Notes: a model not told the origin generated them from the sequence alone. A stretch of DNA of 64,000 nt from an uncultured bacterium (GCA_964397255.1 CAYNHQ010000004.1:118363-182362); one strand, 5' to 3'; positions 5,726 to 35,901 are shown, counted from the stretch's first letter. Numbers and translations: made by a program.

Positions 5726-5800
5726 AGGCGCGTAGCTCAGTGGGAGAGCGCTTCCCTGACACGGAAGAGGTCGGAGGTTCAATCCCTCTCGCGCCTACCA
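5726..5800 (+). tRNA. tRNA-Val (anticodon GAC)
   Basis: Manual cloverleaf fold. Acceptor AGGCGCG/CGCGCCT, D-stem GCTC/GAGC, anticodon stem CTTCC/GGAAG with loop CTGACAC, T-arm GGAGG-TTCAATC-CCTCT. Discriminator A plus an encoded CCA. Confidence 0.85.
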
Positions 5801-5957
5801 TGCGTGCCCTTTTGCCGCCATACTTCGTTGCTCGTCGTTCAGGATCCTCACGTACAAACCGATACGCTCCGGTGCCTCGTTCCTCGCTGCAATGGGTCAA
5901 AATTTTTGTTGACTCGTTGCGCTATCTTATCTAGAGGATGGGGGCGGTTGGAAAATC

Positions 5958-7253
5958 ATGTCGTATCGAATTTTCAGTGGGGGCCTGGCCCTCATTTTCC
6001 TTTTGTCCTTTCCCTTAGAGGCTATGTCTGAGCCTCCATGGGCGGAACCTCAAGATCTTCACTGCAGATCGATTGGAATTGTGGCCCAAGACGAAGCGAG
6101 GGAGATTCTTGCGTACATTACAAGGCAGGCGGCTTACGACGTAAAAAGCCCAGAAGCCAAAGGCCTCTTCGGCCATTCATTGCTGCTTAGAACCCTTGGA
6201 ATGAAATTTGGTTATGGATATGCACCTTCGCCGATTCTGCCACTCAAACAGAACCTTTCAGTGGATGAAAGAATTTTAAGATTGTGCCAACTTGAAATTG
6301 ATACTTACGTGACATACTCATTAATCGGGGATTTCGGGAAGGCTACCGGGGAAGCTCTATTTATCATCGTTTCAACGGTGCCCGCCGTGAAAGGACTAAT
6401 GGCGCTGGGCGAACTGGCTCCCCTCGGTTGGCGCAGTTTGACTTTATCGGAGCTTCCCAACCTGACCTGGCTGGCCGTCCGGCGCATGGGCCAGCAAGCA
6501 ATGCGGGACTCGGTCGAAAGTTTTCAAAAGGTAAGGCCCTATTGGCCGATGGCGCTGGCCTCCGTTGTCATATACAAGTATGTCGTTAAGCCTTTTCTGA
6601 CGATAGGTGAACAGCCCCTCGAACAAGAAGCCAATCGAAGGGTGAATAAGTTTTTCAAATCGGTACTCATGGACCATAAAAAATGGGCTGAGGGGCAAAC
6701 AGGAGGCAGCGAAAAGATTCCTTTCGAAGCCAGCCTCGAACGTTGGACGAACCTGAGTCGTACCTTCGATTCCGAGCTTACGCTGAGGGAAAGGGAGGGC
6801 CGTGACGATGAGCTCAATATCATCCGCGCGAAATCGTATATGTACTATCAGCTCTTGTTGATGACTGAGACCACGATCCTTTTAGAAGAGAACGCCGAGC
6901 GCACGATACAATACCAATTGGAGAACACAGGTCGTCAGCCCACAGCCCAAGAGCAGTTCCTTCTTACAGAGATCCCAAAGGAAATTCAGTTAAGACGCGA
7001 AGAGCAATACTGCGTACTGCAGCAATGGGTATATTTTAGGTCGAGATATCCGGAAGTGAAATCAGACATCCTCGAACAGATGAAACTATTTGGATTTCTC
7101 ACATTCGGAAAGCGATACAAAAAGGTCTTGGCCAAGGACATCGCGGCCTTTGCCAACGTAGACGATCAGAACGCGATCCATCTTCTCATGGAATCCGAGC
7201 CGGAAGTGGACAACAAGTTGTGGGACGGTACCAATTCTCCAAATGTAAATTGA
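5958..7253 (+). CDS. Hypothetical secreted protein (431 aa)
   Basis: Long ORF with N-terminal signal-peptide-like hydrophobic stretch. No recognisable motif. Confidence 0.5.
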   Translation: MSYRIFSGGLALIFLLSFPLEAMSEPPWAEPQDLHCRSIGIVAQDEAREILAYITRQAAYDVKSPEAKGLFGHSLLLRTLGMKFGYGYAPSPILPLKQNLSVDERILRLCQLEIDTYVTYSLIGDFGKATGEALFIIVSTVPAVKGLMALGELAPLGWRSLTLSELPNLTWLAVRRMGQQAMRDSVESFQKVRPYWPMALASVVIYKYVVKPFLTIGEQPLEQEANRRVNKFFKSVLMDHKKWAEGQTGGSEKIPFEASLERWTNLSRTFDSELTLREREGRDDELNIIRAKSYMYYQLLLMTETTILLEENAERTIQYQLENTGRQPTAQEQFLLTEIPKEIQLRREEQYCVLQQWVYFRSRYPEVKSDILEQMKLFGFLTFGKRYKKVLAKDIAAFANVDDQNAIHLLMESEPEVDNKLWDGTNSPNVN

Positions 7254-7404
7254 ACCTGGCATCACAATCATCGCCTTATGTATGCAAACCTTTCCATGTC
7301 GACACATTTTGCATACATTCCGTTGCAGGGGATGACTCGAAAGGGTAAAAACTGAAGTATTTTCAAATACCTATGCCGAGTTTCCTGGTCCAAGTTTTGC
7401 GTGC

Positions 7405-7824
7405 TTGAAGAGCATGGCCGGAGATCCCCCGAACAAGAATTCAAAACCCAAGAAAAGTATAGAGAGCGAGTGGGAGTCATTCATTTCAGATTATCCTCCC
7501 GACCCGCCGTCGATCGATCGTTTCACAAAAATTCTCGCCAAGGGATGCGCTGTTTTATTTGTCCTAGTGGTTGCCGCTTACATGTTTGATCATTATCGAG
7601 CGATGGCGCCCGTTCCTGTCGCTGAAACCTCGGCGCTCCAGAATCCGCCAACCACAAAAATGTATGGATTTCCCACGTTCAGCGAACCCGAGATGAACAC
7701 AGAGAAGGCTCCCCGAGTTCCATCAAAAGTAGCCAGTAAGCCAAAGCCAAAAGCGAGAACGAAAATCGCCTTGAAAAAACCGATCAAAAACTCCAAACAC
7801 CGGCCGTTGCTTTCAGTGAGGTAA
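7405..7824 (+). CDS. Hypothetical membrane-anchored Pro/Lys-rich protein (139 aa)
   Basis: ORF with a single TM helix 'CAVLFVLVVAAYMF' and a Lys/Pro-rich C-terminus. Confidence 0.4.
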   Translation: MKSMAGDPPNKNSKPKKSIESEWESFISDYPPDPPSIDRFTKILAKGCAVLFVLVVAAYMFDHYRAMAPVPVAETSALQNPPTTKMYGFPTFSEPEMNTEKAPRVPSKVASKPKPKARTKIALKKPIKNSKHRPLLSVR

Positions 7825-7998
7825 AAATTATAAATCGAGTTACACCGTCAACTCACCTGTCGCAAGGCTGGCGAAGGCCGATTGCAGTGAAGAAGGATGT
7901 TTCAAGAACCTATCATTCGGGATAAATTTCGAGTTGTGAAGGATCATCCAAAATCATCTCAGCTTCGCTACGGTACATTTTTACTTCACCGCTCACCT

Positions 7999-9279
7999 TC
8001 ACTCGCCGCCCGCGGTATCTTTCAGCCAGACGGTTGGGAAAATGCTCGACGTCGTTTTCGTCGTCCGGGCGGATAAACCGATGAAAAGCACGGCTGAAGA
8101 CTTTAATGTGCTCCTTTCGGCCTTCAAGGCGTAGAACGAGAAATACTCCGGTTTTGTACAATTCATAGCGAGAGTCCACGACGCGTCCTTCGAACGAGGT
8201 TGGCGCAAAGACAGTCGCACCTTTGGGTTTGAGTTCACTTTCTTGGTGGAGAGGACACGCACGAGGTCAGACCGAGTGGCGAGTCCGTTTCGTCCGCGGA
8301 GAAGACTGGGACTGACAAGAGCCCGATCGAGAGGGATCCACACAGGATTGTCAAAATAAGATGAGGGAGGACTGCGGCTCGGGTCAGCCACGGGGAAGAG
8401 ATCCACAAGAGGGAGTGAGGAAGGCTCATAATTCGAAGCGATATGTCCTGCAATCGGATTCGGTTGCTGATCCGGCCGAGTATTGAAGTCACCGATGGCG
8501 ACAAAATCCATTCCAAGACCCTCGGCCTTGTTGGCGCGCCTTCGAACGACCTCGGCAACGACCCACCGCTCAATCGCAGGATGAGCAAGTGATGGCCAAT
8601 GGTTCGCGGCGACAGCGAGATGAGCGACCGTCTTCCCGTGTTGGACAAGAAAACGATCTTCGAGAATGTCTCGTGTCGCGCGATCGGTTCCGTATTGCGA
8701 AAGATCGACGGGATATGCCGCCGCGCTTTCAATCGGTATCCTGCTGACGATTGCCGTCAGAGTCTCGTGACCGAACCCTTTCGAACTCATAATCACAGGA
8801 AGCGAAGCCTGGCAGTACCCGTCGTTTCGAAGGCTGTTCAAAACGTCTCCGACTACCCGCCGATTCTCAACTTCTTCAAGGATGAGAATGTCGGGAAGTT
8901 GTCGACTGGCGAAAAGCTCATGTAGCGCAGAGATCAGTCGCTCGAGTTTTCGTTCGTACATATCTGGTGTCCAGTCGAGCTGTTTGCACATTTGTTGATA
9001 ATTTGGTGATTTGATTTGATCGCAACGCTTTCCTCCGTCTTTGAGGGAGAGGGGGAGGTAGGTTGGATCCTGTACAGTAGATAACTTTGAATCGGACGAA
9101 CCGCGCTCATCATCGGTGGCGTCGAAAAGATTCTCCACATTGTATGAGAGGATTTGAAAGGGTTGATTCGGTGCGGAACAGTTTGCGCCGTTCTTGAGAA
9201 TTTCAGCGGGATCGCTCCTGACCGTTCCTGTCAGGAATAAATGAAGGAAAAGTGCTAGAGCGCCACGTCTCATGTCCAT
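7999..9279 (-). CDS. Secreted endonuclease/exonuclease/phosphatase (EEP) family nuclease
   Basis: Signal peptide begins 'MDMRRGALALFLHLFL'. EEP motifs 'ILSYNVENLF', 'ILILEEVEN' and 'AIGDFNTRPD'. The C-terminal ~60 aa look non-protein-like; see the frameshift finding at 7913-8230. Confidence 0.65.
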   Translation of the reverse strand: MDMRRGALALFLHLFLTGTVRSDPAEILKNGANCSAPNQPFQILSYNVENLFDATDDERGSSDSKLSTVQDPTYLPLSLKDGGKRCDQIKSPNYQQMCKQLDWTPDMYERKLERLISALHELFASRQLPDILILEEVENRRVVGDVLNSLRNDGYCQASLPVIMSSKGFGHETLTAIVSRIPIESAAAYPVDLSQYGTDRATRDILEDRFLVQHGKTVAHLAVAANHWPSLAHPAIERWVVAEVVRRRANKAEGLGMDFVAIGDFNTRPDQQPNPIAGHIASNYEPSSLPLVDLFPVADPSRSPPSSYFDNPVWIPLDRALVSPSLLRGRNGLATRSDLVRVLSTKKVNSNPKVRLSLRQPRSKDASWTLAMNCTKPEYFSFYALKAERSTLKSSAVLFIGLSARTTKTTSSIFPTVWLKDTAGGE

Positions 9280-9407
9280 GGTTCTACCCTTTTCGCAAGA
9301 CGCGTGCCTTCGAATATCTAATAATTTCAAGATGTTGTTAGCAAAAATTTTTGGCTAAAAAGTGCCAAATCACGGTTCGACGGTCGCAGATCGTAAGGTC
9401 GAAGTGA

Positions 9408-9995
9408 TTACTTTCGCTTCTTAGCCGATGATGCCCAAAGCCCCTTCTTCGCAGTTTTCGCCTGGTCCTGGAGTTCCTGAGCGACTGGATCCTTCCCTGA
9501 CTTCGGGTCCCAAATCACATCTCCGTCCCGTACTAACTCATGATTGAGGTTGGTTCCCGGGGGGAGAATGACGATCGCGAGAATGTGTCCCGCTCCATCC
9601 TTCCCTTTGACTTCCAAACGCACTGATTTTCCGAGCACCAGTTTCTCCGCAAGTTTTTTCCCTCTCGCAAGAATCGCGGACTTCCCCTTCGGCAAGTGGA
9701 CACCATAAAGTCGAACCAACTCTTTCTTTTTCTGTTCGAGGATCTTGAGCGTGTCGGCTTGAATCACTTGTATCACCTTCCCATGTTGTTCCGGCGAGTG
9801 GGTCGGAGGAGCGGGTGATAGAGTTGCCGGTGGAGTTGCTTGGGCTTGGACTTCCACCGCTGGGGCGGAAGTTGCAACGGGTGGGGAAATTTCCGACTCT
9901 TTCTCCTTTTTCGAACATCCCGCGGGAAAATGTAAAAGAACCACGACAACGAGCGTAACAACCGCCCTGATAAGAATTAAGTTATGACGGGGCAT
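9408..9995 (-). CDS. Thermonuclease (staphylococcal-nuclease-like) lipoprotein
   Basis: Lipobox 'HFPAGC', a Pro/Ala-rich linker, then an SNase fold 'VIQADTLKIL...VRLYGVHLPK' and 'GLWA'. It lies adjacent to the EEP nuclease gene. Confidence 0.7.
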   Translation of the reverse strand: MPRHNLILIRAVVTLVVVVLLHFPAGCSKKEKESEISPPVATSAPAVEVQAQATPPATLSPAPPTHSPEQHGKVIQVIQADTLKILEQKKKELVRLYGVHLPKGKSAILARGKKLAEKLVLGKSVRLEVKGKDGAGHILAIVILPPGTNLNHELVRDGDVIWDPKSGKDPVAQELQDQAKTAKKGLWASSAKKRK

Positions 9996-10142
9996 AGAAC
10001 CTCCTCTTAACAATTTTCGATACTCGCTTACCATACTCCAATCTCGATGTTTGGAAATTGAATAGCTCGATGGCCGCAGTTACCCTCGACGGCTTTACAA
10101 CTGCGTCAGTACGGACTTATCGGACCGGGCTGTTGTTGTGGC

Positions 10143-10297
10143 GCCAATTTGAAGTTCGCCCCAAATGCCGTACATTCGGCAGGTGATGGTGGATGTGAAG
10201 CTTCCGGATGGGAGTATCAAGAAAATAGAGACGGGAAAGACCGTCCTGGATGTGGCGAGGTTGATAGGTGCCGGCCTGGCGAAGACAGCCATTGCGG
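10143..10297 (+). repeat. thrS 5'-leader/start-codon copy A (displaced duplicate, ~155 nt)
   Basis: Near-identical to 18222-18376 (the true thrS 5' end). It starts at the shared boundary ATTTGAAGTTCGC and diverges after ~codon 45. Confidence 0.85.
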
Positions 10298-10640
10298 CTC
10301 TTCCGGAAAGAATTGACGGTGAGGTTTATTGGTGCGGTTTTGCTTCGAAAGATTCGTATGGTGCGCAAAGTTATTTTATCCGACGCAACGACGGCAATGT
10401 CTTGGTGGATTCTCCGCGGTATGCCGCTCCGATTCAAACGGTTCATTAACCGTTATCGAAAGGCAGTTGGAAGGAAAGGGCCCGTGGGATTTTGCACCGG
10501 ATCTTAAGACCATCTCCACACCGGGACATACCCAGGGACATATCGTCCTTCTCTACAAAGAAGATTATCTCTTTACGGGAGATCATCTTTCATTTTCTCC
10601 CCATCGAAAACATCTCAACGCGTTCAGAGATTGTGGATGA
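10165..10640 (+). pseudogene. Chimeric thrS'-metallo-beta-lactamase-fold fragment, frameshifted
   Basis: ORF 10165..10449 begins with thrS codons (MPYIRQVMVDVKLPDGSIKKIETGKTVLDVARLIGAGLAK) and continues into an MBL-fold sequence ('YFIRRNDGNVLVDSP'). A second frame, 10329..10640, carries the 'TPGHTQGHIVLL' MBL motif. Confidence 0.5.
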
Positions 10641-10714
10641 AAAGTCTGAGGAACAAGAATAAACTTCGCAGTGGCGAGTAGCTCCATTAGAAGTTAATAG
10701 GCCGACCCGGTCGC

Positions 10715-12217
10715 CTAGTGTTGGTACCAGCACCCGTCGTGCAAGCTGCCATCGTTTGCATCTTCTCCTCCCAAAATCAGGACATGCGGGTTGCCGCTTT
10801 TGTCCACGAAGTAAGCAGTTGCTTGGTTAAAGAAGCTGTAACCTCCTCCTGTTCCCGAGATCGTGTGAGATCCTGTAGCTCCATTAAAACTGGAGAGTGA
10901 ACCATCGGTTTTGATTTGGGCGTAGCTTTGTTCACTCGAGCCCGGTGAACCGCTATACAACCCTCCGCTTACCAAAATATAACTTCCCGCTACGGTCGCC
11001 GTAAATTTTTCTCGTGATTTGGTCAGGCCACTCGAATTCGCCGTCCAACTCTTTCCGACAAGTGATCCGTCCCGAATATTGATCTGGTTATAATAAACGG
11101 TGCTTTGTTTACTCGTGCTTGCGGATTGTGAAATCGGATCGACCGCAGCACTGTCTCCACCCAAAACGTAGAGATAGCCCGCCGAAACCACTAGCTGATG
11201 GTAAGCACGGGCGGCGGGGAGATTAACCAGCGTCTGCCAACTCCCTAGCGTTCCGTCACTTTTGATGTCTGCCGAATACACTTTTGAAATCGGTTTACCA
11301 CTGGAATTGTTTCCACCAACCACATAAAACCTTCCATGGAAAATCACGGCCCCTTCGGCGAAAAGGGCCTGGGGAAGCGCTGTTGTGGTGTCCCAAGTGC
11401 CGCTTTCACCGCTTGCGGGTAAAGTGCCATTGTCTTTTATAGACGAATAGTAAACCTTCGAGGTGGCCTTGCCTGTCCCATCCAGGCCGCCGAGAACATA
11501 GACATATCCGTTGCCCGTGACGAGCGAATTGAATTCGTTAGCCACTCCGGCCGCCGCAAAACTTCGTTTAGCGGGTAAAGCGGTCGTGGAGCTCCAACTT
11601 GTTTTCGCGAGCGCACCACTGCTCTTGTTCAACGAATTGTAATAAACCGTATCAACATTCGAAGTGTTGTCATCCATCGTTCCCGTTGAAGTGTTCCCTC
11701 CGAGAGCGTAGATGTAGGTGGTTGTTCCGATGGGTGTGGTGACGGACGAGAAACCTTGCTGTGCGGTCGGAAGGCTCGCTGTGGCCGTCCAAACAATCGT
11801 GGAAGGGCTAAAGCTCACGCTCGATACGATCAGAAAACTGAGTTCATTGCTGGTGCCGCCCGGCGTAGTGACCGAAACTTTATAGGTGGTACCCGCAGTC
11901 AAGCCGTTTGGGACGGTTCCTACAATGTAAACATTCGTCCAATTTTTATTTTCAAAATCGATCTTCGCCGAGGCCACGACATCATCCGTAGTGGGATTTC
12001 GAAAATCAACCGAGTACCCATCGGAAGGTGTGGAAGTAAGATCTCCAAAGTTGTTTCCGTCAATGATAAAGAGGCTACCAATCGTACCGCTTCCCGTTAC
12101 TCCTCCGTTGATATCCGTCAACGTAGGTGGCCCATTCCCGTCACTTCCGCAGGAATGGACGAATAAAACCAATCCGAAAAGAATACCAAAAACGTGAAAG
12201 CTTTTTTTAGTATGCAT
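10715..12217 (-). CDS. Cell-surface lipoprotein with IPT/TIG domain and Kelch-type beta-propeller repeats
   Basis: Lipobox 'FVHSCGSDG'. An IPT-like segment is followed by repeated Kelch signatures 'YVYVLGG', 'FYVVGG', 'YLYVLGG', 'YILVSGG'. Confidence 0.65.
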   Translation of the reverse strand: MHTKKSFHVFGILFGLVLFVHSCGSDGNGPPTLTDINGGVTGSGTIGSLFIIDGNNFGDLTSTPSDGYSVDFRNPTTDDVVASAKIDFENKNWTNVYIVGTVPNGLTAGTTYKVSVTTPGGTSNELSFLIVSSVSFSPSTIVWTATASLPTAQQGFSSVTTPIGTTTYIYALGGNTSTGTMDDNTSNVDTVYYNSLNKSSGALAKTSWSSTTALPAKRSFAAAGVANEFNSLVTGNGYVYVLGGLDGTGKATSKVYYSSIKDNGTLPASGESGTWDTTTALPQALFAEGAVIFHGRFYVVGGNNSSGKPISKVYSADIKSDGTLGSWQTLVNLPAARAYHQLVVSAGYLYVLGGDSAAVDPISQSASTSKQSTVYYNQINIRDGSLVGKSWTANSSGLTKSREKFTATVAGSYILVSGGLYSGSPGSSEQSYAQIKTDGSLSSFNGATGSHTISGTGGGYSFFNQATAYFVDKSGNPHVLILGGEDANDGSLHDGCWYQH

Positions 12218-12346
12218 ATTTCGTCTCCAGAAAGAAGATCTGCGAGAACTTTGGAACTAAGTAGTCCTACCACAAGAAACTCTCAAAAACTATACCAGCT
12301 GAATGTTCGACGAATAATGTGGCGTCAAATCGGCGTAAATTGCACC

Positions 12347-12360
12347 GATTTGAAATTCGC
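12347..12360 (+). repeat. Isolated copy of the array boundary/core motif (GATTTGAAATTCGC)
   Basis: Matches the left boundary shared by all thrS-leader copies (GATTTGAAGTTCGC) with no thrS sequence to its right. It is preceded by the inverted repeat AAATCGG-N11-CCGATTT and sits between two cassette genes. Confidence 0.4.
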
Positions 12361-12374
12361 TACAAGATCGTTGA

Positions 12375-12650
12375 TTATTTTTCCGACGTCGTCGGGTCGA
12401 TCACTGTGCGAACTTGGGAAATCTTGTTCGCAGGGAAATCCCCTTTTTGCGCATGCTCGCGAACCATTTTCTCGTTCGGGGCGATGTAAACGCAGTAGAT
12501 CTTGTTATCGGTGACATAGCTTTGGACCCATTGAATTTTGGGTCCCATTTCATTCAAAACATCACACGACTTTTGTGAGATGATTTGAAGTTGGTCTTTC
12601 GACAATTTACCAGCGCCCGGAATCTCTCGTTCAATGACGTACTTCGGCAT
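12375..12650 (-). CDS. DUF4242-family small protein (putative nickel-binding, SCO4226-like)
   Basis: 91 aa 'MPKYVIEREIPGAGKLSKDQLQ...WVQSYVTDNKIYCVYIAPNEKMVREHAQKGDFPANKISQVRTVIDP'. This matches the DUF4242 pattern as recalled from memory. Confidence 0.5.
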   Translation of the reverse strand: MPKYVIEREIPGAGKLSKDQLQIISQKSCDVLNEMGPKIQWVQSYVTDNKIYCVYIAPNEKMVREHAQKGDFPANKISQVRTVIDPTTSEK

Positions 12651-12806
12651 GTCTGACCTCCTGAGGTGTGGTGGTATACGTCGATTTGAGCCGGAATGAA
12701 AAGTTTTTAGTGACTCTTGAGGGGATACTCTTCAAAAATTGGGTAGAGGTCAGCTTCTTATGCCAATTGACACATATATAGGTATAAGTGGTATACTTGA
12801 GTCCCT

Positions 12807-13031
12807 ATGGCGCAAGTAACTCTTTATCTCCCTGAGAAAATGGAAAAATTCCTTCGTAAGGAGGCGGGTCGAAAGAAGAAGAGTATATCGGCATTTCTGG
12901 CGGAGCTCCTGCAGCAAAAAAGAGAACCTCAAGGGTGGTCGAAAAATTTTTTTTCAAAAATTATTGGTGGCTGGCGTGGGGAATTTCCAAATATTGAAGA
13001 ACTGCCACATCAAGATCGCGACGATTGGTGA
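12807..13031 (+). CDS. vapB: VapB-type antitoxin (ribbon-helix-helix/AbrB-like)
   Basis: 74-aa ORF overlapping the start of a PIN-domain gene by 7 nt. Classic TA organisation. Confidence 0.6.
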   Translation: MAQVTLYLPEKMEKFLRKEAGRKKKSISAFLAELLQQKREPQGWSKNFFSKIIGGWRGEFPNIEELPHQDRDDW

Positions 13032-13423
13032 GCTTTCTCCTCGATACGAACGCCTGCATCGCACTGTTGAAAGGGACCGATGCCGATCTTGCCAAACGGC
13101 TTCGTGTTTCGAAACCTGAGCAATTTAAACTCTGCAGCCCTGTCAAAGCTGAACTCTTTTATGGCGCTCGTAAGAGCGAAAGAGTGAATGACAATCTCGC
13201 GCTATTGACGAAATTCTTCGAACCCTTCGAAAGTTTTACGTTCGACGATAGTGCCGCCGAACAATACGGAATCGTACGAGCCATATTATCCCGTTCCGGC
13301 AACCCGATTGGATCCAACGATCTGCTGATTGCCAGCATTGCTCTGGCGCATGATCTTACGCTCCTGACCAAGAATCTCCGTGAGTTTGTAAAAGTACCTG
13401 GCCTAAGGACGGAAAGCTGGTAG
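13025..13423 (+). CDS. vapC: VapC PIN-domain ribonuclease toxin
   Basis: 132 aa 'FLLDTNACIALL...' with PIN acidic residues (D, E, D...D). It follows the small antitoxin ORF. Confidence 0.75.
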   Translation: MVSFLLDTNACIALLKGTDADLAKRLRVSKPEQFKLCSPVKAELFYGARKSERVNDNLALLTKFFEPFESFTFDDSAAEQYGIVRAILSRSGNPIGSNDLLIASIALAHDLTLLTKNLREFVKVPGLRTESW

Positions 13424-13819
13424 GAGTCTCCATGCATGAGCAGAAATGAGCTTTCGGAACAAACTAGTTTACAAAAATGCGAACAAGAGAAAATTTCCTT
13501 CCAACCAATCCCCGTAGCCCTAGAGATCTTCTCTCCTTTATGACCTTACGTTGATATACTCGGAACCGTGCGACTCGCAGCGATAATATGCGGCATCTTA
13601 GTTTGGTTGCTCAGCAACGATTTCAAACGTCATCTTATCTCTCGGAGTTATACTGTATTGTTCTTCGCTGGTCTCTTCACATTATTTTTTGTTCATAGGG
13701 ATATTTCGGCTCAAGGAATAGGTGGGGAGCCGATGAGCGCGGCCACTTTAGGCCTCTGCTACAGTCGAACGGTTACTCTGGAACATTACTAAAATCATGG
13801 AGGAACTCTCTGATTTCTG

Positions 13820-14050
13820 GTGAATGTGAGTGCTCGCATGTGTAATTTATACCTCTGTGAAGAAGAAGGAAATCGAACGGAAGTTGAGGAAGTTCGGGTG
13901 GTGTTTGCTCCGACATGGGAGCAACCACGACGTATGATGAATGGCGAAGACCAAGTTGAAGTACCCCGACACCCTGAAATCCATGAGAAGTTAGCACGTT
14001 ATGCCATTCTCAGAATTGCCGAGCGAAACCCCGGTCCAAGAAGGGGTTGA
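13820..14050 (+). CDS. Possible degenerate HicA-like toxin partner of the downstream HicB
   Basis: 76 aa. The C-terminus 'VEVPRHPEIHEKLARYAILRIAE' loosely resembles the HicA 'VTVPHH..L..GTLKSILKQAG' region. It sits immediately upstream of a HicB-like gene. Confidence 0.25.
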   Translation: MNVSARMCNLYLCEEEGNRTEVEEVRVVFAPTWEQPRRMMNGEDQVEVPRHPEIHEKLARYAILRIAERNPGPRRG

Positions 14051-14094
14051 TCGTTATACAAATATATTTGTATAATAGCCAAAGGATAGATCGC

Positions 14095-14508
14095 ATGCTC
14101 GCATTTGATGGTCATATTTATAAGGACGGAAAATTCTGGTTGGTCGAGATTCCAGGTCTAAATCTGATGAGTCAGGGACGCTCAAGATCGGAGGCATATA
14201 AAATGGCAAAAAGTGTCGTCATCGATGCCTCTGGAAATGGCCGACTGAAATTACATCTAGTAAAGAGCCCTGGTAATGGTTTTCTCATTCTTTCGGAGGA
14301 TTTCGACACCCTCATTCCTTTGCTTCTTAAAAAGCAACGACAGAAGGCGAATCTCACGGTCGCAGAAGCAGCCAAACGTCTCGGCTCCAAATCCCCGAAT
14401 GCCTACGGAGTTTATGAATATGGCCGGGCGAAACCAACGCTTAAAAAACTTGAGCAGCTACTCTCAGCTGTAAATCCAGAACATCAAGTAATGCTAAAAT
14501 GTGCGTAA
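14095..14508 (+). CDS. hicB: HicB-family antitoxin with C-terminal XRE-type HTH
   Basis: 'MLAFDGHIYKDGKFWLVEIPGLNLMSQGRSRSEAYKMAKSVV' matches the HicB/UPF0150 fold pattern. The C-terminal 'LTVAEAAKRLGSKSPNAYGVYEYGRAKPTLKKLEQLL' is an HTH. The preferred start is the internal ATG 14095 of ORF 14047..14508. Confidence 0.6.
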   Translation: MLAFDGHIYKDGKFWLVEIPGLNLMSQGRSRSEAYKMAKSVVIDASGNGRLKLHLVKSPGNGFLILSEDFDTLIPLLLKKQRQKANLTVAEAAKRLGSKSPNAYGVYEYGRAKPTLKKLEQLLSAVNPEHQVMLKCA

Positions 14509-14602
14509 ACCAATTGTAGAAAAACCCCAGAAGAACCCTACTTACCCACTCTGAAAAGAGAAGAACCTAATATGCGTCCGGTATATACCCAAACCAAAGA
14601 AG

Positions 14603-14667
14603 TGGCGGCGCAGGGAATCGAACCCCGGACCTAGGGCTTATGAGACCCTCGCTCTAACCGACTGTTG
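14603..14667 (-). pseudogene. Truncated tRNA-Met(CAU) gene: 3' ~65 nt only (D-loop to acceptor 3' end)
   Basis: Reverse complement reads AGTCGGTTAGAGC-G-AGGGT-CTCATAA-GCCCT-AGGTC-CGGGG-TTCGATT-CCCTG-CGCCGCC-A. The anticodon loop carries CAT, and the T-arm and acceptor 3' strand are intact. The 5' acceptor strand and D-stem 5' half are absent. Confidence 0.6.
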
Positions 14668-14877
14668 AGAACTTTCACAAAATTGCTGGAGCTATTGTGG
14701 ACGGAATGGGGGAACGAAAGAGGCAGGGTCTCGTGTGGAGTGGATTCGAGTGTTTTTGGAGGGGAGGGAGTGGAGGGAAACGGGAAATGGGGATCGGTGG
14801 GAAGGGTCAAAGGCGTTCGCGGCTGTGTTCGGAGAGGGTTTTGGTAGAGGGCGCGTAGGGGAGGGCGTTATCCGTTG

Positions 14878-15045
14878 ACAGTTTGATCAAATCCGGGGAA
14901 GGCGATTTGAAGTTCGCTGGAAATGTCGTACATTCGGCGGGTTATGGTGGAAGTGAAGCTACCGGATGGGAGCATTAAGAAAATAGAGGCGGGAAAGACC
15001 GTTCTGGATGTGGCGAGGTTAATTGGGTCGGGCCTGGCGAAGGCA
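14878..15045 (+). repeat. thrS 5'-leader/start copy B (plus 25-nt upstream extension shared only with copy C)
   Basis: 'ACAGTTTGATCAAATCCGGGGAAGGC' + GATTTGAAGTTCGCTGGAAATGTCGTACATTCGGCGGGTTATGGTGGAAGTGAAGCTACCGGATGGG... ~90% identical to the thrS 5' end for ~140 nt. ORF 14923..15237 is a thrS' fusion. Confidence 0.85.
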
Positions 15046-15927
15046 GTCTACCATCCTGCGCAAGAAGCACTCGCGCATCCCTCCTTTGTGGTAAGAAATG
15101 GAGGACGGGGCAACGGACCCGTCGGAATTCATTTTCAAGAAATCCATAACGGCATCACCATCGGTAGAATTCCATACATATTTCATCCTTCTTACGTCTT
15201 TATGAGGCATTCCATCGTACCAGTCTTCTTCGGCTAGGCTCTTCTCAAAAACAAGGGAAATATCGGGTAAAGCGAATTCGCTTAATAACTCCATAAGATG
15301 TCCCAAGTTGTCTTTGGTTACATATACAACTCTAGGAAGGTCAAAAGAATTACCAGGCACTTCAGTCACAAGAACGGTTCGGTTATCAACGTTCAGTAGT
15401 CGCCCGTGCTCCCGAATATAACTTGTCACATCTCCAAATGTGGGATCAGTCATGAACTCGTGTGCCGGATCCATGTATGATTCGACTTCATCCCACACAG
15501 ACTGAAGAAGGGTTTGACCCCTTTCTATGTCTTGAAAAAAAATATTCTCACCGCTGTCAAAGCGAGTTTGAGTGATACCAAGATTTTGTAATTTAGCCGT
15601 TGCCATCGCGTGGCTCATATTTTTTACGTCCGCGGAGGAGTTAACTTTTCCTTCCCCTCCAATTTTTTTGACGATTAAGGCAGCGATTGAATTCTCCTTT
15701 TCGACAAAGCAGGCTTGTTCAATCTGCTTATATTCATCAAGAAACAAGGGCCGACTTACTTCAAATCCACCTGCGGCCTCAAATTGCCGATGATCGAGCC
15801 GAGGAACATAATTGAGGTAGGTTGGCCCACCTGGTTTCGTAAAGTACAAATGTTCCGGAAAGTACAAATCGCTGGCCTTAACAGCTGCTGCCATTAAACA
15901 AATCGTAATCAATATAAAATTTTTCAT
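15019..15927 (-). CDS. Hypothetical secreted protein (302 aa)
   Basis: Signal peptide 'MKNFILITICLMAAAVKA'. No recognised domain. The 3' end overlaps thrS copy B on the opposite strand. Confidence 0.5.
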   Translation of the reverse strand: MKNFILITICLMAAAVKASDLYFPEHLYFTKPGGPTYLNYVPRLDHRQFEAAGGFEVSRPLFLDEYKQIEQACFVEKENSIAALIVKKIGGEGKVNSSADVKNMSHAMATAKLQNLGITQTRFDSGENIFFQDIERGQTLLQSVWDEVESYMDPAHEFMTDPTFGDVTSYIREHGRLLNVDNRTVLVTEVPGNSFDLPRVVYVTKDNLGHLMELLSEFALPDISLVFEKSLAEEDWYDGMPHKDVRRMKYVWNSTDGDAVMDFLKMNSDGSVAPSSISYHKGGMRECFLRRMVDCLRQARPN

Positions 15928-16039
15928 AACATCCCCTGTTCCAAGTTAATGAGCTGGTTCATTCAAAGTTTAGGCCATACCAGACTCTTGAAATTATGGT
16001 GTTTTTTTTTAGATCGTTTGATCTCCTCTGCGACATTGA

Positions 16040-16127
16040 ACAGTTTGATCAAATCCGGGGAAGGCGATTTGAAGTTCGCTGGAAATGCCGTACATTCGGC
16101 GGGTGATGGTGGAAGTGAAGCTTCCGG
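16040..16127 (+). repeat. thrS 5'-leader/start copy C (short, ~62 nt of thrS similarity plus shared upstream 25 nt)
   Basis: Same upstream extension as copy B, then GATTTGAAGTTCGCTGGAAATGCCGTACATTCGGCGGGTGATGGTGGAAGTGAAGCTTCCGG. Similarity ends abruptly. Confidence 0.8.
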
Positions 16128-16343
16128 TCAAGCCTTTGTTGCATCGATAATTAGAAGTCCTTTTTCTGCGCAGAACTTTCGAAGCGTCAAATTGATAAGG
16201 GTCTGGTAAGGCACGCCCACTTTTCGAGCCAGCCGTTGGTAAAATTTAAGTACGCTAGCGTCAATCCGAATGGTCTTTTGTACCTTGGCCGGTCGAAAAA
16301 ACTTCCCTCGAACTCCTTTTGAAAAATCATATTCCTTCTTCAT
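16128..16343 (-). CDS. brnA: BrnA antitoxin (RHH/CopG-like)
   Basis: 71 aa 'MKKEYDFSKGVRGKF...PYQTLINLTLRKF'. Located downstream of, and overlapping, the BrnT gene. Confidence 0.65.
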   Translation of the reverse strand: MKKEYDFSKGVRGKFFRPAKVQKTIRIDASVLKFYQRLARKVGVPYQTLINLTLRKFCAEKGLLIIDATKA

Positions 16344-16617
16344 AGTCTTTTTTCTCCTTTCTCGTAGCCCTTCGAGCCGAAATAATACGAATCACTTCTT
16401 CGTTCCCCTCAAGCACCCGATAGGTGTGAACCACCAATGTGACCCGGCGATCCATAGAACATCCAATGGTGACCCAGCGCTCCTCTTTTATCGATGACTC
16501 CGGATCGACAATTGAAACGTGAAGTGGGTCGTCAAAAACAGTGACGGCAAGCTCAAAAGAAATTCCATGCTTCCGAACATTTTTCTCCGCTTTGTGCGGA
16601 TCCCATTGAAATTGCAC
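16327..16617 (-). CDS. brnT: BrnT toxin (DUF497 ribonuclease)
   Basis: 96 aa 'FQWDPHKAEKNVRKHGISFELAVTVFDDPL...RIISARRATRKEKKDY'. This is the canonical BrnT pattern. Confidence 0.7.
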   Translation of the reverse strand: MQFQWDPHKAEKNVRKHGISFELAVTVFDDPLHVSIVDPESSIKEERWVTIGCSMDRRVTLVVHTYRVLEGNEEVIRIISARRATRKEKKDYEEGI

Positions 16618-16674
16618 ACACTACATTGTAGTTATTTTGTATGCCCGAGTCTACGCATTTTTGCAAATGGAGCC

Positions 16675-16875
16675 GATTTGAAGTTCGCGCAAAATGCCGT
16701 ACATTCGGTGGGTGATGGTGGAAGTGAAACTTCCGGATGGGAGCACCAAGAAAATAGAGGCGGGGAAGACCGTCCTGGATGTGGCCAAGCTCATTGGAGC
16801 GGGCCTGGCCAAAGCCGCGATTGCGGGAAAGCTCGATGGCAAAATCGTGGATCTCCGTATGCCGATTCGGGAAAA
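16675..16875 (+). repeat. thrS 5'-leader/start copy D (longest, ~200 nt, ~92% identity)
   Basis: GATTTGAAGTTCGCGCAAAATGCCGTACATTCGGTGGGTGATGG... through '...ATCGTGGATCTCCGTATGCCGATTCGGGAAAA' (thrS codons 1-~62), then it diverges and hits a stop. ORF 16694..16909 is a thrS' fragment. Confidence 0.85.
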
Positions 16876-16921
16876 CACCTCTCTACTAATCGCTCCGAAA
16901 AGAGCCTGAAAGGAGTTTTTC

Positions 16922-17578
16922 CTATCGACCTTGATCAAGAGGGCCATAATTATAATCAAACGCCTGTCTCCCCTCGATTTTGAAGTTACGCCAATAGGTG
17001 TCCCCATTAGCTAACTTAATGCCAAGTGCCATTCCTTCCCAAGATGAACAAGTCAGACTTTCATCCAATATGAGAGCTCTCACAGCTTCGCGTTCGGCGT
17101 AATTGTACATGCCCATGACAGATTGCGAACAAATGAAGGCGACCACAGATATTACCACCCATGGTGAGTTACCCATCCACATTGCCCATCCTCCGAGGAT
17201 TACAATAATCGCAGTGATCACGATGCGAATTTTAGGCCGCATCGGCTTCGGAACTGTGGGCTGCGATAGAAGGGAAATAAAAAAGAGAACTGGTAGAGAT
17301 GCCAATAATGACCAGTGTCTAAAGAGAATAATCCAACTTATGAAGAGTAAAATAGAAACATACGGTACTAGCATCAGGAAATTAAAATAAACCCGAACAG
17401 CGCGTCTTAAATGTTTGGACTGCGCCCATTGCAAAGCAGCGCTTGGTTGAACCGTCAAGAATACAGAACTGTTTAAACAAGAAGTCTTAAACTCATCAAA
17501 TGTTCGAAATGGGAAATTCAAAAGTTCACCGACATTATGAGCCCCTTCATGTTTTTGATTCATTTTTTTAATTTCCAA
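16922..17578 (-). CDS. Hypothetical integral membrane protein (218 aa)
   Basis: Several hydrophobic helices (e.g. 'VPYVSILLFISWIILF', 'IVITAIIVILGGWAMWM'). No recognised family. Confidence 0.45.
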   Translation of the reverse strand: MEIKKMNQKHEGAHNVGELLNFPFRTFDEFKTSCLNSSVFLTVQPSAALQWAQSKHLRRAVRVYFNFLMLVPYVSILLFISWIILFRHWSLLASLPVLFFISLLSQPTVPKPMRPKIRIVITAIIVILGGWAMWMGNSPWVVISVVAFICSQSVMGMYNYAEREAVRALILDESLTCSSWEGMALGIKLANGDTYWRNFKIEGRQAFDYNYGPLDQGR

Positions 17579-17701
17579 GGTCCTGTTTCAGTGGAGCAAG
17601 TGATTAGCAGCACACCTGCGAATGAAAGAACGAATGAATATGCTTGTCAATCATGTGTGAAGTTCGCTGGAAAGCCCTACTTTTGGCGGGTTAGGGGGGT
17701 G

Positions 17702-17932
17702 CTATTTAGAAAAGAACTTTTTCGCAGCGCTTTTTTCTATTCTTGCTTGTCGAAGGATAGAAAGAACGGTGCCCAGGGGAATCACTTTGTTTCCGTGTCG
17801 CGGAACAATAGCAGTGTCGCCGGACTTGTTTTGGAATGCGACGTGAGAGCCTTCTTGGCGCACGGGGACGAAGCCGAACTGAGTAAGCAAGTTAACGATG
17901 TTTCGATAGTTAAGATTAGCGAGCTTCGGCAT
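17702..17932 (-). CDS. hicA: HicA mRNA-interferase toxin
   Basis: 76 aa '...NLLTQFGFVPVRQEGSHVAFQNKSGDTAIVPRHGNKVIPLGTVLSILRQA'. This is the HicA/YcfA signature (GSH...VP.H....LGT...IL+QA). Confidence 0.75.
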   Translation of the reverse strand: MPKLANLNYRNIVNLLTQFGFVPVRQEGSHVAFQNKSGDTAIVPRHGNKVIPLGTVLSILRQARIEKSAAKKFFSK

Positions 17933-17941
17933 GCCAGCGAA

Positions 17942-18160
17942 CTACGACGCTAGTCGAAGTTGCGTGACAAAAACAGGATCCTTCACTTTCGAGCGGAGAG
18001 GTTTTTTAGCAGCGCGGAAGTAAAGACGAATAGCTTTGCGAAGACCGTCAATTGCATCTGGAATGGAATCACCCGCACTAGCGATATCAAGCTCGGGGCA
18101 GAGGGATGAGTATCTCTTCCCCTCTTTCCGGATGATAGCTGTGAATGTTTCGTTTCGCAT
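17942..18160 (-). CDS. hicB: HicB antitoxin
   Basis: 'MRNETFTAIIRKEGKRYSSLCPELDIASAGDSIPDAIDGLRKAIRLYF' matches the HicB/UPF0150 fold. The ORF-track TTG start at 18223 would run into the thrS leader, so the internal ATG at 18160 is preferred. Confidence 0.65.
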   Translation of the reverse strand: MRNETFTAIIRKEGKRYSSLCPELDIASAGDSIPDAIDGLRKAIRLYFRAAKKPLRSKVKDPVFVTQLRLAS

Positions 18161-18240
18161 ATTTTCAGTATAGGCCCCCCTCTTTTGGGGCGCAACGTTG
18201 CTAAACTTGAAGACTTGGGCCAATTTGAAGTTCGCCCCAA

Positions 18241-20178
18241 ATGCCGTACATTCGGCGGGTGATGGTGGAAGTGAAGCTACCGGATGGGAGCATCAAGAAA
18301 ATAGAGACGGGAAAGACCGTCCTGGATGTGGCCAAGCTCATCGGGGCGGGCCTGGCCAAAGCCGCGATTGCGGGAAAGCTCGATGGCAAAATCGTGGATC
18401 TCCGGATGCCGATTCGGGAGAATGCTTTGCTTCAAATCATTACGGAAAAAGATCCCTTCGCGAATGAAGTGATTCGCCACTCGGCGGAACATGTCATGGC
18501 CGACGCGGTCAAACAGCTCTGGCCCAAAGTGCAAATCGATGTGGGACGAACCGATCACTCTGAAAAATTTCAATACGATTTTAAAATCGATCATCCGTTT
18601 ACGCCGCAGGATCTCGAAAAAATCGAATTGAAAATGAATGAGATTTTAAAAAAAGAATCCACGTTCACACGCGAAGTGGTTTCACGTGAAGAGGCAAAGA
18701 AACTATTTAAGTCGATGGGAGAAGAACTCAAAATTTCCCGTATCGACGATATTCCCAAAGGAGAAAATATTTCTCTGTTTCGGCATGGAAATTTTGTCGA
18801 TCTCTGTCGCGGGCCGCATGTCCAGACCACATCTCAAATCGGCGCGATTAAGTTGTTGGAAACTTCCGCTTCTTATTGGCGGGGCGATGAAAAAAACGAA
18901 GTTCTTCAGCGCGTGTACGGCACCGCATTTCGGACGAAGAAAGAATTAGAAGAGCATCTTGCCCGAGTCGAAGAAGCGAAACACCGAGATCATCGGCGAA
19001 TCGGAAAAGATCTCGATCTCTTTAGTATCTCGGACGAAATTGGACCCGGCCTGATTTTATGGCATCCCAAAGGGGCACTGGTTCGCTACCTGATCGAAGA
19101 ATTTTGGCGAAAAGAGCATTTCAAAGCGGGATACGATTTGGTGGTTTCACCTCACCTCGCCCGTCTCGATCTCTGGAATACGTCAGGTCACACCAGCTTC
19201 TATAAAGAGAACATGTTTTCACCGATGGAAGTGGAAAAGCAACCGTACATGGTTAAACCCATGAACTGCCCCTTCCATATTCAAATTTACAAATCGAAAC
19301 TGCGTTCGTACCGCGATCTACCCCTGCGGTATGCAGAACTGGGGACAGTATATAGATATGAACGTTCAGGTGTTCTCCATGGTCTACTTCGGGTCCGGGG
19401 ATTCACACAGGACGATGCGCACCTATTTGTAACTCCAGATCGGCTCAATGACGAAATCGAAAAGGTTCTCCAGTTTTGCGTCTATATATTTAAAACCTTT
19501 GGGTTTTCCGAGTATGAGATCTACTTATCCACACGCCCGCCAAAGTCCGTTGGCAGCGACGAAGAATGGGCCAATGCCACGACAGCCCTAAAGAACGCCC
19601 TCGAGAAGAGCAAGCTTCCTTTTTCAATCGATCCGGGGGAAGGAGTGTTTTACGGCCCGAAGATCGATGTGAAGGTCAAAGACTCTTTGGGGAGGGCCTG
19701 GCAATGCGCGACCATACAGGTCGATTTCAACCTACCTGCCCGATTTCAGTTGGAATTTATTGACCGGGATGGTACAAGGCGCACCCCGATTATGATCCAT
19801 CGGGCCCTCTTGGGATCGATGGAACGGTTCTTCGGCTGCCTGGTCGAACATTATGTCGGAGCCTTCCCGCTCTGGCTCAGTCCGGTACAGGTCAAACTTC
19901 TGCCCATCACGGATGGGCAGCATTCTTTTGCCGAGGAAGTTCGCCTTAAGCTCAACGCGGAAGGGTTCCGGGCTGAAGTGGACGGGCGTAACGAAAAGCT
20001 GGGCTTTAAAATACGGGAAGCGCAGCTGGAAAAGGTTCCCTTTATGGCGGTCATAGGGGAACAAGAAGTTGCCAAGCGTGAGCTTTCCCTTCGGAAACGA
20101 AGCGGAGAGCAGGTCTCCGGAGTTTCCGTGGATCAATTTGCGAAGCTTCTTCGAGAGGAGGAACAGGCGAGTAGGTGA
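18241..20178 (+). CDS. thrS: Threonyl-tRNA synthetase
   Basis: N-terminal TGS domain '...VKLPDGSIKKIETGKTVLDVAKLI'. Class II motifs are present and the C-terminus ends '...EQEVAKRELSLRKRSGEQVSGVSVDQFAKLL'. The true start may be the second in-frame ATG at 18262 (M-VEVKLPDGS, compared with E. coli MPVITLPDGS). Confidence 0.9.
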   Translation: MPYIRRVMVEVKLPDGSIKKIETGKTVLDVAKLIGAGLAKAAIAGKLDGKIVDLRMPIRENALLQIITEKDPFANEVIRHSAEHVMADAVKQLWPKVQIDVGRTDHSEKFQYDFKIDHPFTPQDLEKIELKMNEILKKESTFTREVVSREEAKKLFKSMGEELKISRIDDIPKGENISLFRHGNFVDLCRGPHVQTTSQIGAIKLLETSASYWRGDEKNEVLQRVYGTAFRTKKELEEHLARVEEAKHRDHRRIGKDLDLFSISDEIGPGLILWHPKGALVRYLIEEFWRKEHFKAGYDLVVSPHLARLDLWNTSGHTSFYKENMFSPMEVEKQPYMVKPMNCPFHIQIYKSKLRSYRDLPLRYAELGTVYRYERSGVLHGLLRVRGFTQDDAHLFVTPDRLNDEIEKVLQFCVYIFKTFGFSEYEIYLSTRPPKSVGSDEEWANATTALKNALEKSKLPFSIDPGEGVFYGPKIDVKVKDSLGRAWQCATIQVDFNLPARFQLEFIDRDGTRRTPIMIHRALLGSMERFFGCLVEHYVGAFPLWLSPVQVKLLPITDGQHSFAEEVRLKLNAEGFRAEVDGRNEKLGFKIREAQLEKVPFMAVIGEQEVAKRELSLRKRSGEQVSGVSVDQFAKLLREEEQASR

Positions 20179-32033: not shown

Positions 32034-32039
32034 ACTTGG
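31994..32039 (-). repeat. attL-like 46-nt direct repeat (tRNA-Pro nt 1-40 plus 6 nt upstream)
   Basis: Identical 46-mer CACCCCATGCAAGTGCGCTACCAGGCTGCGCCACGCCCCGACTTGG also at 37797-37842. Confidence 0.85.
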
Positions 32040-34396: not shown

Positions 34397-34417
34397 AGGA
34401 CGCTCGTAAAACAAGTG

Positions 34418-35895: not shown

Positions 35896-35901
35896 TAGTT
35901 T

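Follow-up and report, generated by a model that had tools for sequence, protein, structure and literature searches.

Tandem thrS 5'-end copies separating small toxin-antitoxin-rich cassettes upstream of thrS in an uncultured bacterium

Insertion of accessory DNA directly upstream of thrS, an essential aminoacyl-tRNA synthetase gene, has been described in Salmonella and in Vibrio. In Salmonella Typhimurium the wzy (rfc) cassette is located between nucA and thrS, is flanked by 113-bp repeats and has no integrase (Charity et al. 2025, PMC12074656). Excision yields a circle, the cassette can be acquired again, and RecA-type recombination was considered by the authors (PMC12074656). In Vibrio cholerae the type VI secretion system (T6SS) element Aux3 has an intergenic attachment site directly upstream of thrS (Santoriello et al. 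2020, PMC7721734). Integration in the 5' end of a housekeeping gene is known from the dusA-specific islands (Farrugia et al. 2015, PMC4482086), and among the Dehalococcoides islands at ssrA 15 of 31 lack an integration module (McMurdie et al. 2011, PMC3146451). Here we describe a 64,000-nt stretch of DNA from an uncultured bacterium (GCA_964397255.1 CAYNHQ010000004.1:118363-182362), referred to as the window and numbered from its first nucleotide, in which the promoter and first codons of thrS recur as a tandem array around small cassettes immediately upstream of the intact gene. The original prediction, made from the sequence alone, had listed five such copies and knew of no description of thrS 5' ends as an attachment locus, for which wzy (PMC12074656) and Aux3 (PMC7721734) are precedents upstream of thrS.

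The thrS promoter and first codons were found five times, all on the plus strand, by repeat search, MAFFT alignment, regular-expression matching and nhmmer. Four of the copies are truncated (stubs A to D) and the fifth, E, is the intact gene. The common segment starts at 10147 in A, 14905 in B, 16067 in C, 16676 in D and 18223 in E, and opens each time with (C)(G/A)ATTTGAAGTTCGC; the 13-mer ATTTGAAGTTCGC is identical in all five clear copies. With a profile of the 64-nt common part (nhmmer), copies A to E scored E=1e-22 to 1e-23, and the rest of the 64 kb held no match of similar strength. Two decayed copies extend the five listed previously. Copy G (17654-17710, plus strand), absent from the earlier list, is of the B type, with a TGG triplet and GGGTTA, and lies between a 218-aa open reading frame (ORF) and hicA; it was recovered by the repeat search and by nhmmer at E=2.6e-5. 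Remnant F (12346-12365, plus strand), which corresponds to a match at 12347-12360 in the original prediction, is a decayed stub start, CCGATTTGAAATTCGC, with a marginal nhmmer score (E=0.34), but its strand is right and it sits between two cargo units. Counting F and G, seven same-strand copies of the thrS 5' end are present, and none elsewhere in the window. These direct repeats of the target separate six cassettes with unrelated cargo, with a stub on the left of each cassette and the intact promoter and thrS at the right end of the array.

The stubs share their left boundary and differ in their right ends, as had been predicted. Stub A (10145-10296) holds the promoter and 37 codons, stub B (14878-15045) a 27-nt block, the promoter with a TGG triplet and 34 codons, stub C (16040-16127) the 27-nt block, the promoter and seven codons, and stub D (16674-16905) the promoter and 53 codons; all are on the plus strand. 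The 27-nt block, which confirms an extra upstream block predicted for B and C, lies to the left of the common start in both, and a decayed version of it is found in G. The right ends are at +61 in C (16127), about +141 in B (~15045), about +150 in A (~10296) and about +197 in D (~16873), where a weak tail continues to about +230 (~16905). Copy E (18223-20178, plus strand) encodes four threonyl-tRNA synthetase domains (protein P0073) and is followed by infC-rpmI-rplT. Divergence among the copies was 3-14% in the first 63 nt and 6-18% in the following 79 nt.

The right junctions run into the cargo in different ways. Stub A, whose chimera has a TGS domain, is fused in frame to a frameshifted remnant resembling a metallo-beta-lactamase (MBL). 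The last 28 nt of B are antisense to the final nine codons and stop codon of a 302-aa ORF (15019-15046), and the present C-terminus of this orphan was therefore made by the stub B junction. Stub C ends flush with the stop codon of BrnA, and some 16 nt separate the end of D from the stop of the 218-aa ORF. The sequences following the four stub ends have no shared motif by eye, and arm-type recombinase sites would not fit on the right-hand side of the stubs. We regard the right edges as accidental.

The window belongs to an NCBI contig of 280,738 bp. Logan unitigs from two sequencing runs (SRR12313479 and SRR12313480) matched the window at 100% from 10227 to 14659 and from 14946 to 16112. These independent unitigs cross the junctions of stub A with the MBL-like remnant, of stub B with the 302-aa gene and of the 302-aa cassette with C. 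Truncated stubs of thrS in continuity with cargo are thus genuine DNA and no product of assembly.

The coding parts of the stubs differ from thrS, and among themselves, mainly at synonymous sites. The proportions of synonymous and nonsynonymous differences (pS/pN) as compared to E were 0.39/0.05 for A, 0.31/0.05 for B and 0.18/0.02 for D, and were 0.31/0.05 between the stubs A and B. Overall pS ranged from 0.18 to 0.43 and pN from 0.02 to 0.07, with pN/pS of about 0.1-0.17 and a significant synonymous excess (binomial P 1e-4 to 3e-3). This bias indicates that the stubs came from functional thrS alleles of other lineages and not from local decay; they are pieces of at least four different alleles, each functional in some lineage. 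It also backs the earlier proposal that foreign DNA was inserted serially, each element with its own thrS-like segment.

Within the stubs the divergence is not evenly distributed. Stub A differs from E at 4 of 89 positions between +16 and +104 and at 12 of 45 between +105 and +149 (Fisher P=4e-4), and B at 5 of 89 and then 9 of 36 over the corresponding ranges (Fisher P=4e-3). The divergent zone begins at +110 in both stubs (+110 to +150 in A, from +110 to the end in B), where they have eight derived states in common (haplotype H2), and two deep haplotypes are present among the stubs from +110 onward. Stub D has no such step as compared to E (6/89 and 2/45 over the same ranges), and the step in A and B is therefore a recombination breakpoint and not a difference in constraint. 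Stub D instead matches E to +197 at 95% identity and then at about 60% over some 30 nt (P=0.001); a thrS-like divergent tail past the ends of A, B and C was not significant (P=0.34, 0.96 and 0.47). The stubs are hybrids with differing breakpoints, before +62 in C, at about +105 in A and B and at about +190 in D. In addition, the TGG triplet occurs in three junctions, B, C and G, and the same three have the 27-nt block on their left. If exchange took place inside the 13-mer, the block would move with the cassette on the left and the triplet with the one on the right, and the chance of this coincidence would be about 1/35. Block and triplet are thus linked although the 13-mer lies between them, which places the exchange to the right of +16. 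A crossover at GATTTGAAGTTCGC, the fixed core originally proposed, is unlikely in view of this linkage and of the varied breakpoints.

The left edge coincides with the start of what we infer to be a sigma-70-type core promoter of thrS. The common segment has the layout AT-TTGAAG, 16 nt, TACATT, 9 nt, ATG; in copy E the two boxes are at 18225-18230 (TTGAAG) and 18247-18252 (TACATT), and the repeats begin 2 nt ahead of the proposed -35 box. The likely start codon of thrS is ATG 18262 (MVEVK-LPDGS), five residues before LPDG as in nearly all relatives, and the NCBI gene call (645 aa, ATG 18241, the longest ORF) probably starts seven codons too early. TAnATT was found 9-10 nt before the thrS start in four lineages, the window and three related loci (L002, L165 and L169), with TTGnnn 16-17 nt farther upstream. 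In L002 the box is CCGTACATT, 10 nt ahead of the ATG, with TTGCCC 17 nt upstream; in L169 it is CCGTAGATT, also with TTGCCC 17 nt upstream, and in L165 ACGTAGATT with TTGCTA 16 nt upstream. A hypervariable triplet (CCC, TGG, GCA or TAC) falls within the promoter spacer. With this spacing the thrS mRNA would be leaderless or nearly leaderless in this bacterial family. The -10 box and the promoter geometry are kept in relatives, and a functional limit would explain the sharp left edge without a cleavage site. A left edge bounded by the promoter would mirror the rule for elements that target tRNA genes, whose shared block extends as far as the gene's functional end. The repeat of a second cassette in the window, which stops precisely at the stop codon of its target gene, behaves likewise.

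Inside the repeat an imperfect, GC-rich inverted repeat, CGCCCCAAAT-GCCGTAC-ATTCGGCGGG, extends from +11 to +37 in a 10-7-10 arrangement (read by eye). Outside it, the left flanks of F, B, C and D hold an inverted copy (5-9 bp, resembling TCAAATCGG) of the stub start CCGATTTGA at variable spacing, located at 12325-12353 (F), 14885-14912 (B), 16047-16074 (C) and 16663-16681 (D). This copy is significant for F, where a 9-bp inverted repeat precedes the remnant (P=0.003), and for B and C (P=0.02), but not for D; A and E are without it. The inverted repeat at F could form a hairpin of -12.7 kcal/mol.

We also compared the locus with its relatives. The closest ThrS among 5.8 billion proteins has 76% identity, and the named relatives are Bdellovibrionota or Oligoflexia bins. 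The family synteny is bamA-skp-tRNA-Val(GAC)-thrS-infC, and in the window tRNA-Val(GAC) is at 5726-5800 on the plus strand, forming the left anchor of the interval (ARAGORN in the window and relatives, and tblastn synteny). The gap between tRNA-Val and thrS is only 20-160 nt in six relatives (L003-L006, L081 and L155), as compared to 12.4 kb in the window, so that the entire interval (5801-18222), including both orphans and both nuclease genes at its left side, is lineage-specific. This had been missed in the original prediction, which had called for a comparison with an empty site; none was found at the species level (nearest ThrS 76%), but at the family level the synteny is clear. Other relatives have inserts in the same interval. 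In the 74% ThrS relative (L166-L168; 5.2-10.0 kb of L166) the interval is 4.9 kb in total and holds two AbiEii genes, a Phd/PIN pair and two orphans, and in the 76% ThrS relative (L169, 2195-3156) it holds a VapBC pair (ribbon-helix-helix (RHH)/PIN). Three orphan accessory genes are present in L165 (7300-10000) and a 1.75-kb insert with orphans in L002 (8257-10006). With toxin-antitoxin cassettes in three lineages, the interval is a family-wide insertion hotspot rich in such genes.

The footprints in L002, L165 and L169 are partial repeats of the tRNA-Val 3' end, downstream of tRNA-Val. The tRNA-Val 3' end was rejected as the repeated site of the window, since it is repeated in these three loci and not in the window. 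Repeats of the thrS 5' end were not seen in any relative examined. The 160 ThrS-guided loci from genomes and metagenomes had peak identities of 72-77%; a thrS 5' end could be recognised in 60 of them, and these yielded a single extra repeat, of 63 nt and unrelated (L029). As compared to the relatives examined, the thrS-stub array is thus specific to the lineage of the window. Short TGS-domain proteins on long contigs were rejected as further stubs, being frameshifted thrS in error-rich assemblies (P0054/L164), and the long protein P0075 merely has an unrelated N-terminal extension.

Pfam scans of the ORFs from 5.8 to 21 kb found no recombinase, in agreement with the predicted lack of an integrase inside the array. 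Integrases in the window are confined to a separate island at tRNA-Pro with its own repeats, no site resembling the thrS core was found near the two recombinase genes there (nhmmer), and no helper recombinase recognising the thrS repeats was found in the 64-kb window. The array also has no room for an integrase pseudogene. Its BrnTA cassette is a single operon with 547 nt between stubs, its HicAB cassette (about 510 nt) is exactly one operon, neither holds spare DNA or an integrase fragment, and all non-coding stretches in the array are shorter than 400 nt.

Judged by arrangement, the Salmonella wzy cassette is the closest precedent. Both loci are recombinase-less, lie directly upstream of thrS, have long direct repeats that overlap the thrS promoter region and have a nuclease gene on the far side. 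However, wzy is one cassette with identical repeats, whereas the array has at least six cassettes with diverged mosaic repeats, and the wzy repeats are intergenic whereas those of the array include 7-53 thrS codons. The phyla are unrelated, and the likeness is one of arrangement. The array extends the wzy case to at least six cassettes, to coding sequence in the repeat and, by its allele fossils, to transfer between lineages, and the question of recA or a recombinase raised by wzy becomes testable on seven junctions instead of two. Aux3 is similar in its location upstream of thrS, and a short form of it is retained, but it is prophage-like, has its own integrase and does not duplicate thrS coding sequence. 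Insertion upstream of thrS, previously treated separately, is now linked across Salmonella (wzy), Vibrio (Aux3) and a Bdellovibrionota family.

The dusA islands, like the cassettes of the array, supply a new 5' end and promoter and displace the old 5' end to the far side of the island. They always have a cognate tyrosine integrase, attachment repeats of 21-28 bp, a fixed position and a size of kb to tens of kb, whereas the array has no integrase, repeats of 62-230 nt, variable breakpoints and cassettes of 0.5-2.5 kb. SXT/R391 in prfC is of the same 5'-end-replacement type as the dusA islands. Tandem accretion arrays include those of cis-mobilizable elements (CIMEs) and ICESt1 as well as the composite islands of the staphylococcal cassette chromosome (SCC). 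In the ssrA islands, as in the array, unrelated elements are stacked at one target with direct repeats of the target end between them, but arrays of the ssrA type target the 3' end of a gene for an RNA or a protein, with a 20-bp repeat and a fixed insertion point, have at least some members that encode a recombinase and consist of much larger elements. The array is an unusual variant of such stacking of islands at the end of a gene, and the whole case rests on a single metagenome-assembled genome, the only one to show it so far.

Sedentary chromosomal integrons are also similar, in having small recombinase-less cassettes, often of one gene or operon, and in being rich in toxin-antitoxin cassettes, which have their own promoters and are often inverted. 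The integron-like array originally suggested did not hold up with respect to intI, attC and cassette orientation. The array has no intI or attI, and its repeats are homologues of a host gene start instead of attC hairpins, with left-flank inverted repeats in only two or three of six flanks. The R' motif GTTRRRY of integrons is absent, the array edge being GTTCGCC, and exchange took place away from the edge of the repeat. In integrons most cassettes lack a promoter and share one orientation behind a common promoter, whereas six of eight transcription units in the array are directed away from thrS and the stub promoters.

The reading we tentatively prefer, at somewhat less than an even chance, is serial single-crossover insertion of circular recombinase-less cassettes in which the crossover was guided by homology. 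At least six small circular cassettes would have entered successively, each by a single (Campbell-type) crossover. Each would have carried the thrS core promoter and first codons, acquired at the thrS locus of its previous host, and the crossover would have taken place between this segment and the 5' end of the resident thrS. This would leave a hybrid stub on the left of the cassette, consisting of the resident promoter and 5' codons up to the crossover and then the thrS-like tail of the cassette, and would rebuild an intact promoter and thrS on the right each time, so that the essential gene was always expressed. Campbell-type insertion predicts such a hybrid junction, in which resident sequence passes into sequence brought by the cassette from left to right. 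The left edge would be sharp because selection keeps only the sequence from the -35 box onward, and the right edges, being unconstrained, would have eroded into the cargo. The crossovers may have been of the RecA type, between near-identical segments of 60-230 nt, as proposed for Salmonella wzy. Homology guidance is favoured over a fixed core since neither the cassettes nor their neighbours encode a recombinase, the breakpoints differ and the homology extends over 60-230 nt, and also in view of the recombinase-less BrnTA cassette at an unrelated gene end in the window and of the wzy analogue. If this holds, incoming DNA has repeatedly exchanged the promoter and first codons of an essential aminoacyl-tRNA synthetase gene, and the genome retains a dated series of displaced thrS alleles. 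It would also be a natural record of tiny recombinase-less cassettes, each a single operon and mostly toxin-antitoxin pairs, spreading between lineages and piling up. Unexpected to a specialist would be the series of allele fossils, and such cassettes at the promoter of an essential gene.

Several points weigh against homology-guided insertion. It leaves unexplained why the flanks to the left of F, B/C and D hold 5-9-bp inverted copies of the stub start, and five unrelated left flanks that part within 3 nt fit a dedicated site more easily than chance. At 62-89 nt the homology is close to the shortest that RecA uses efficiently for crossover, and the mosaic pattern could be later gene conversion on top of site-specific events. 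Stacks of target-gene repeats are usually made by a recombinase, even if many members lack one (Dehalococcoides ssrA, PMC3146451). The cassette order rests on a short-read metagenome assembly. With the nearest ThrS at 76%, no close relative, empty site, circular junction or second array was found, and the core pattern TTGAARTTCGCNNNAAATGNCGTACATTCGG had 0 matches in metagenome and viral contigs.

The same Campbell topology would result from a site-specific recombinase acting in trans, either chromosomal or from a helper that targets thrS, with the segment of about 62 nt as a simple site. The cassettes would then be hitch-hikers, comparable to integron cassettes, CIMEs, pseudo-SCC elements and Xer-dependent modules. 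We regard this, the main rival, as possible but on the doubtful side. The single left edge of the five flanks, the invariant 13-mer, the imperfect palindrome at +11 to +37 and the significant inverted copies at F and B/C would all suit a recombinase, and single-operon cassettes of 0.5-1 kb are too small for autonomy. The tRNA-Pro island of the window follows the same logic and has a tyrosine integrase, and about half of the tandem ssrA islands in Dehalococcoides are without an integration module. However, Pfam scans found no recombinase in or beside the array, neither recombinase gene of the window has a core-like site next to it, and the site is absent from all searched collections. The hybrid breakpoints are at three different positions, homology continues 60-170 nt past any plausible core, and a second recombinase-less cassette in the window, at the 3' end of a gene for an AMIN-domain protein, would need a second specificity. 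In a bolder form of this reading, which seems unlikely to us, the thrS segment of about 62 nt would be where a recombinase of the host or a helper, acting in trans, docks the cassettes of an integron-like system, with the promoter and first codons of an essential gene in place of attC and the 5' allele swapped with each capture. The array could also consist of full-size islands or prophages, each once with a thrS-specific integrase, that have eroded mostly to their toxin-antitoxin modules. Its richness in these modules, the relics (the MBL-like remnant, a tRNA-Met fragment, and the decayed F and G) and the right-hand junctions that cut genes agree with such erosion, but at least six independent and clean losses of an integrase would be needed with both flanking stubs kept. 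As BrnTA and HicAB are cassettes of exactly one operon and long non-coding stretches are lacking, we consider erosion distinctly improbable.

Homology-guided insertion also has to be weighed against explanations in which no such series of insertions took place. The assembly could have chained several coexisting strains, each with one cassette upstream of thrS, via the shared repeat; the DNA comes from a metagenome bin assembled from short reads, repeats of 62-230 nt exceed typical k-mers and the Logan unitigs end within repeats. Every stub, however, has private single-nucleotide polymorphisms and unique left and right flanks, and C, G and the 27-nt block are short enough for single reads to span. 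The junctions found at 100% in independent assemblies of two runs need an intact thrS elsewhere in the same genome, and every junction would stay real even if the order were chimeric. An assembly artefact is thus very unlikely. Least probable of all, with hardly any chance in our view, is a series of local duplications of the thrS leader with later insertion of unrelated DNA between the copies. Tandem duplications are common, and the copies share strand and left edge. But a decaying local duplicate predicts pN close to pS, and its nonsynonymous divergence could not be seven times lower than the silent divergence of the functional copy, in contrast to the low pN/pS observed at pS of up to 0.43, even between A and B, and to the two deep haplotypes from +110 onward. 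In-situ duplication, already doubted in the original prediction, is rejected on this pattern and import is supported.

Four further origins of the repeat were tried and rejected. A relic of a tRNA T-arm in the stub start or left flank does not apply, as the stems fail to pair, and no thrS leader RNA family or T-box was found in Rfam. A retro-copy with the edge at the transcription start disagrees with an edge upstream of the -35 box and with antisense cargo, and a long target-site duplication disagrees with copies that differ with synonymous bias. Xer/dif modules (28-bp XerC-6-XerD sites, with pdif modules alternating in orientation) were also rejected, since the repeats of the array are all direct and have no dif-like AT-rich centre by eye, their one palindrome-like stretch, of 10-7-10 spacing, being GC-rich.

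The cargo of the interval is diverse. Between tRNA-Val and stub A (5801-10142) the lineage-specific DNA, without a counterpart at this position in relatives, holds the two plus-strand orphans (431 aa and 139 aa), and on the minus strand an EEP-family nuclease (7999-9330) and an SNase-like nuclease (9408-10034), both identified with Pfam. Right of stub A follows the MBL-like pseudogene remnant (10297-10640, plus strand), split in two frames and with a weak Lactamase_B match (E=0.057), and then a Kelch-repeat lipoprotein of 500 aa (10715-12217, minus strand; Pfam). The cassette between F and B starts with an SCO4226-like/DUF4242 protein (12375-12650, minus strand; Pfam E=4.6e-28), followed on the plus strand by a VapB-like gene (12807-13031; RHH only at E=0.2) and a PIN/VapC gene (13025-13423; PIN E=7.6e-13). 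Also on the plus strand (13838-14508) are a small orphan ORF and a 153-aa protein (14047-14508) with a C-terminal XRE-type helix-turn-helix (HTH_3), with gene calls in locus L163. The 153-aa protein may be a HicB-like antitoxin; the small ORF at 13820-14050, predicted as HicA-like, had no Pfam match, and its role as toxin partner is unconfirmed. At 14611-14670 on the minus strand is a 3' fragment of tRNA-Met(CAT). Its Rfam match is below the gathering score (24.9 bits, E=0.16), and the sequence reads as a tRNA(CAT) without the 5' acceptor strand. The fragment is probably a relic of the attachment site of another element, which suggests that the F-to-B cassette is itself a mosaic.

On the right side of the array, all cargo is on the minus strand. 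The 302-aa secreted orphan (15019-15927) has no Pfam match and no homologue was found, but the exact protein is present in the two Logan runs. The BrnTA cassette encodes BrnA (16128-16343; E=2e-8) and BrnT (16327-16617; E=1.2e-28), and a promoter-like site for brnTA is located within it. The 218-aa membrane orphan (16922-17578) is an ORF with no Pfam match. The last cassette holds HicA (17702-17932; E=1.5e-16) and a HicB-like antitoxin (17942-18160), which had no Pfam match and is assigned from its position only. The type II toxin-antitoxin families matched in the cargo were thus BrnT, BrnA, HicA and PIN, and the VapB and HicB partners are weak or unconfirmed. As compared to the earlier cargo calls, Kelch, DUF4242, PIN, BrnT, BrnA, HicA and a TGS domain in the chimera were recovered, whereas VapB, MBL, HicB and the HicA-like ORF were weak or unconfirmed and the IPT domain was not seen. 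Exact-protein look-ups returned nothing on record for rpmI, BrnT, HicA and stub D, and in a blastn comparison of the array with plasmids and phages only the DUF4242 gene matched, at 71% identity.

The window contains two more repeat-flanked elements. One is a 5.8-kb island (31957-37874) on the 5' flank of tRNA-Pro(GGG). The first 40 nt of this tRNA gene with 6 upstream nt (31994-32039) recur perfectly at 37797-37842, and about 32 nt more on the promoter side are weakly similar. The island encodes a tyrosine integrase (32124-33392), a serine recombinase (34377-35084) and an SDH/ClpP-like protease (36703-37611). It has the same logic as the thrS array in that the element supplies a promoter and 5' part, but it has its own integrase. 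This integrase, 14 kb away from the array, had been named as a candidate for the cognate recombinase of the thrS site and was rejected, as it has its own tRNA-Pro repeats and no link to the thrS site was found.

The second element is the cassette at the AMIN-domain gene (47297-48571), located at 48384-50196. The last 61 codons and stop codon of this gene stand on both sides of it as a direct repeat of 188 nt, of which 182 nt are perfect, and both copies finish exactly at the TAG stop. The 1437-nt cassette encodes BrnT (48893-49237), a BrnA/CopG-like protein and a 202-aa secreted orphan, and it has no recombinase. If the thrS segment were a docking site, this BrnTA cassette may mark a further one at the end of the AMIN-domain gene. 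In favour of homology guidance, one sequence-independent mechanism would cover both the thrS array and this cassette.

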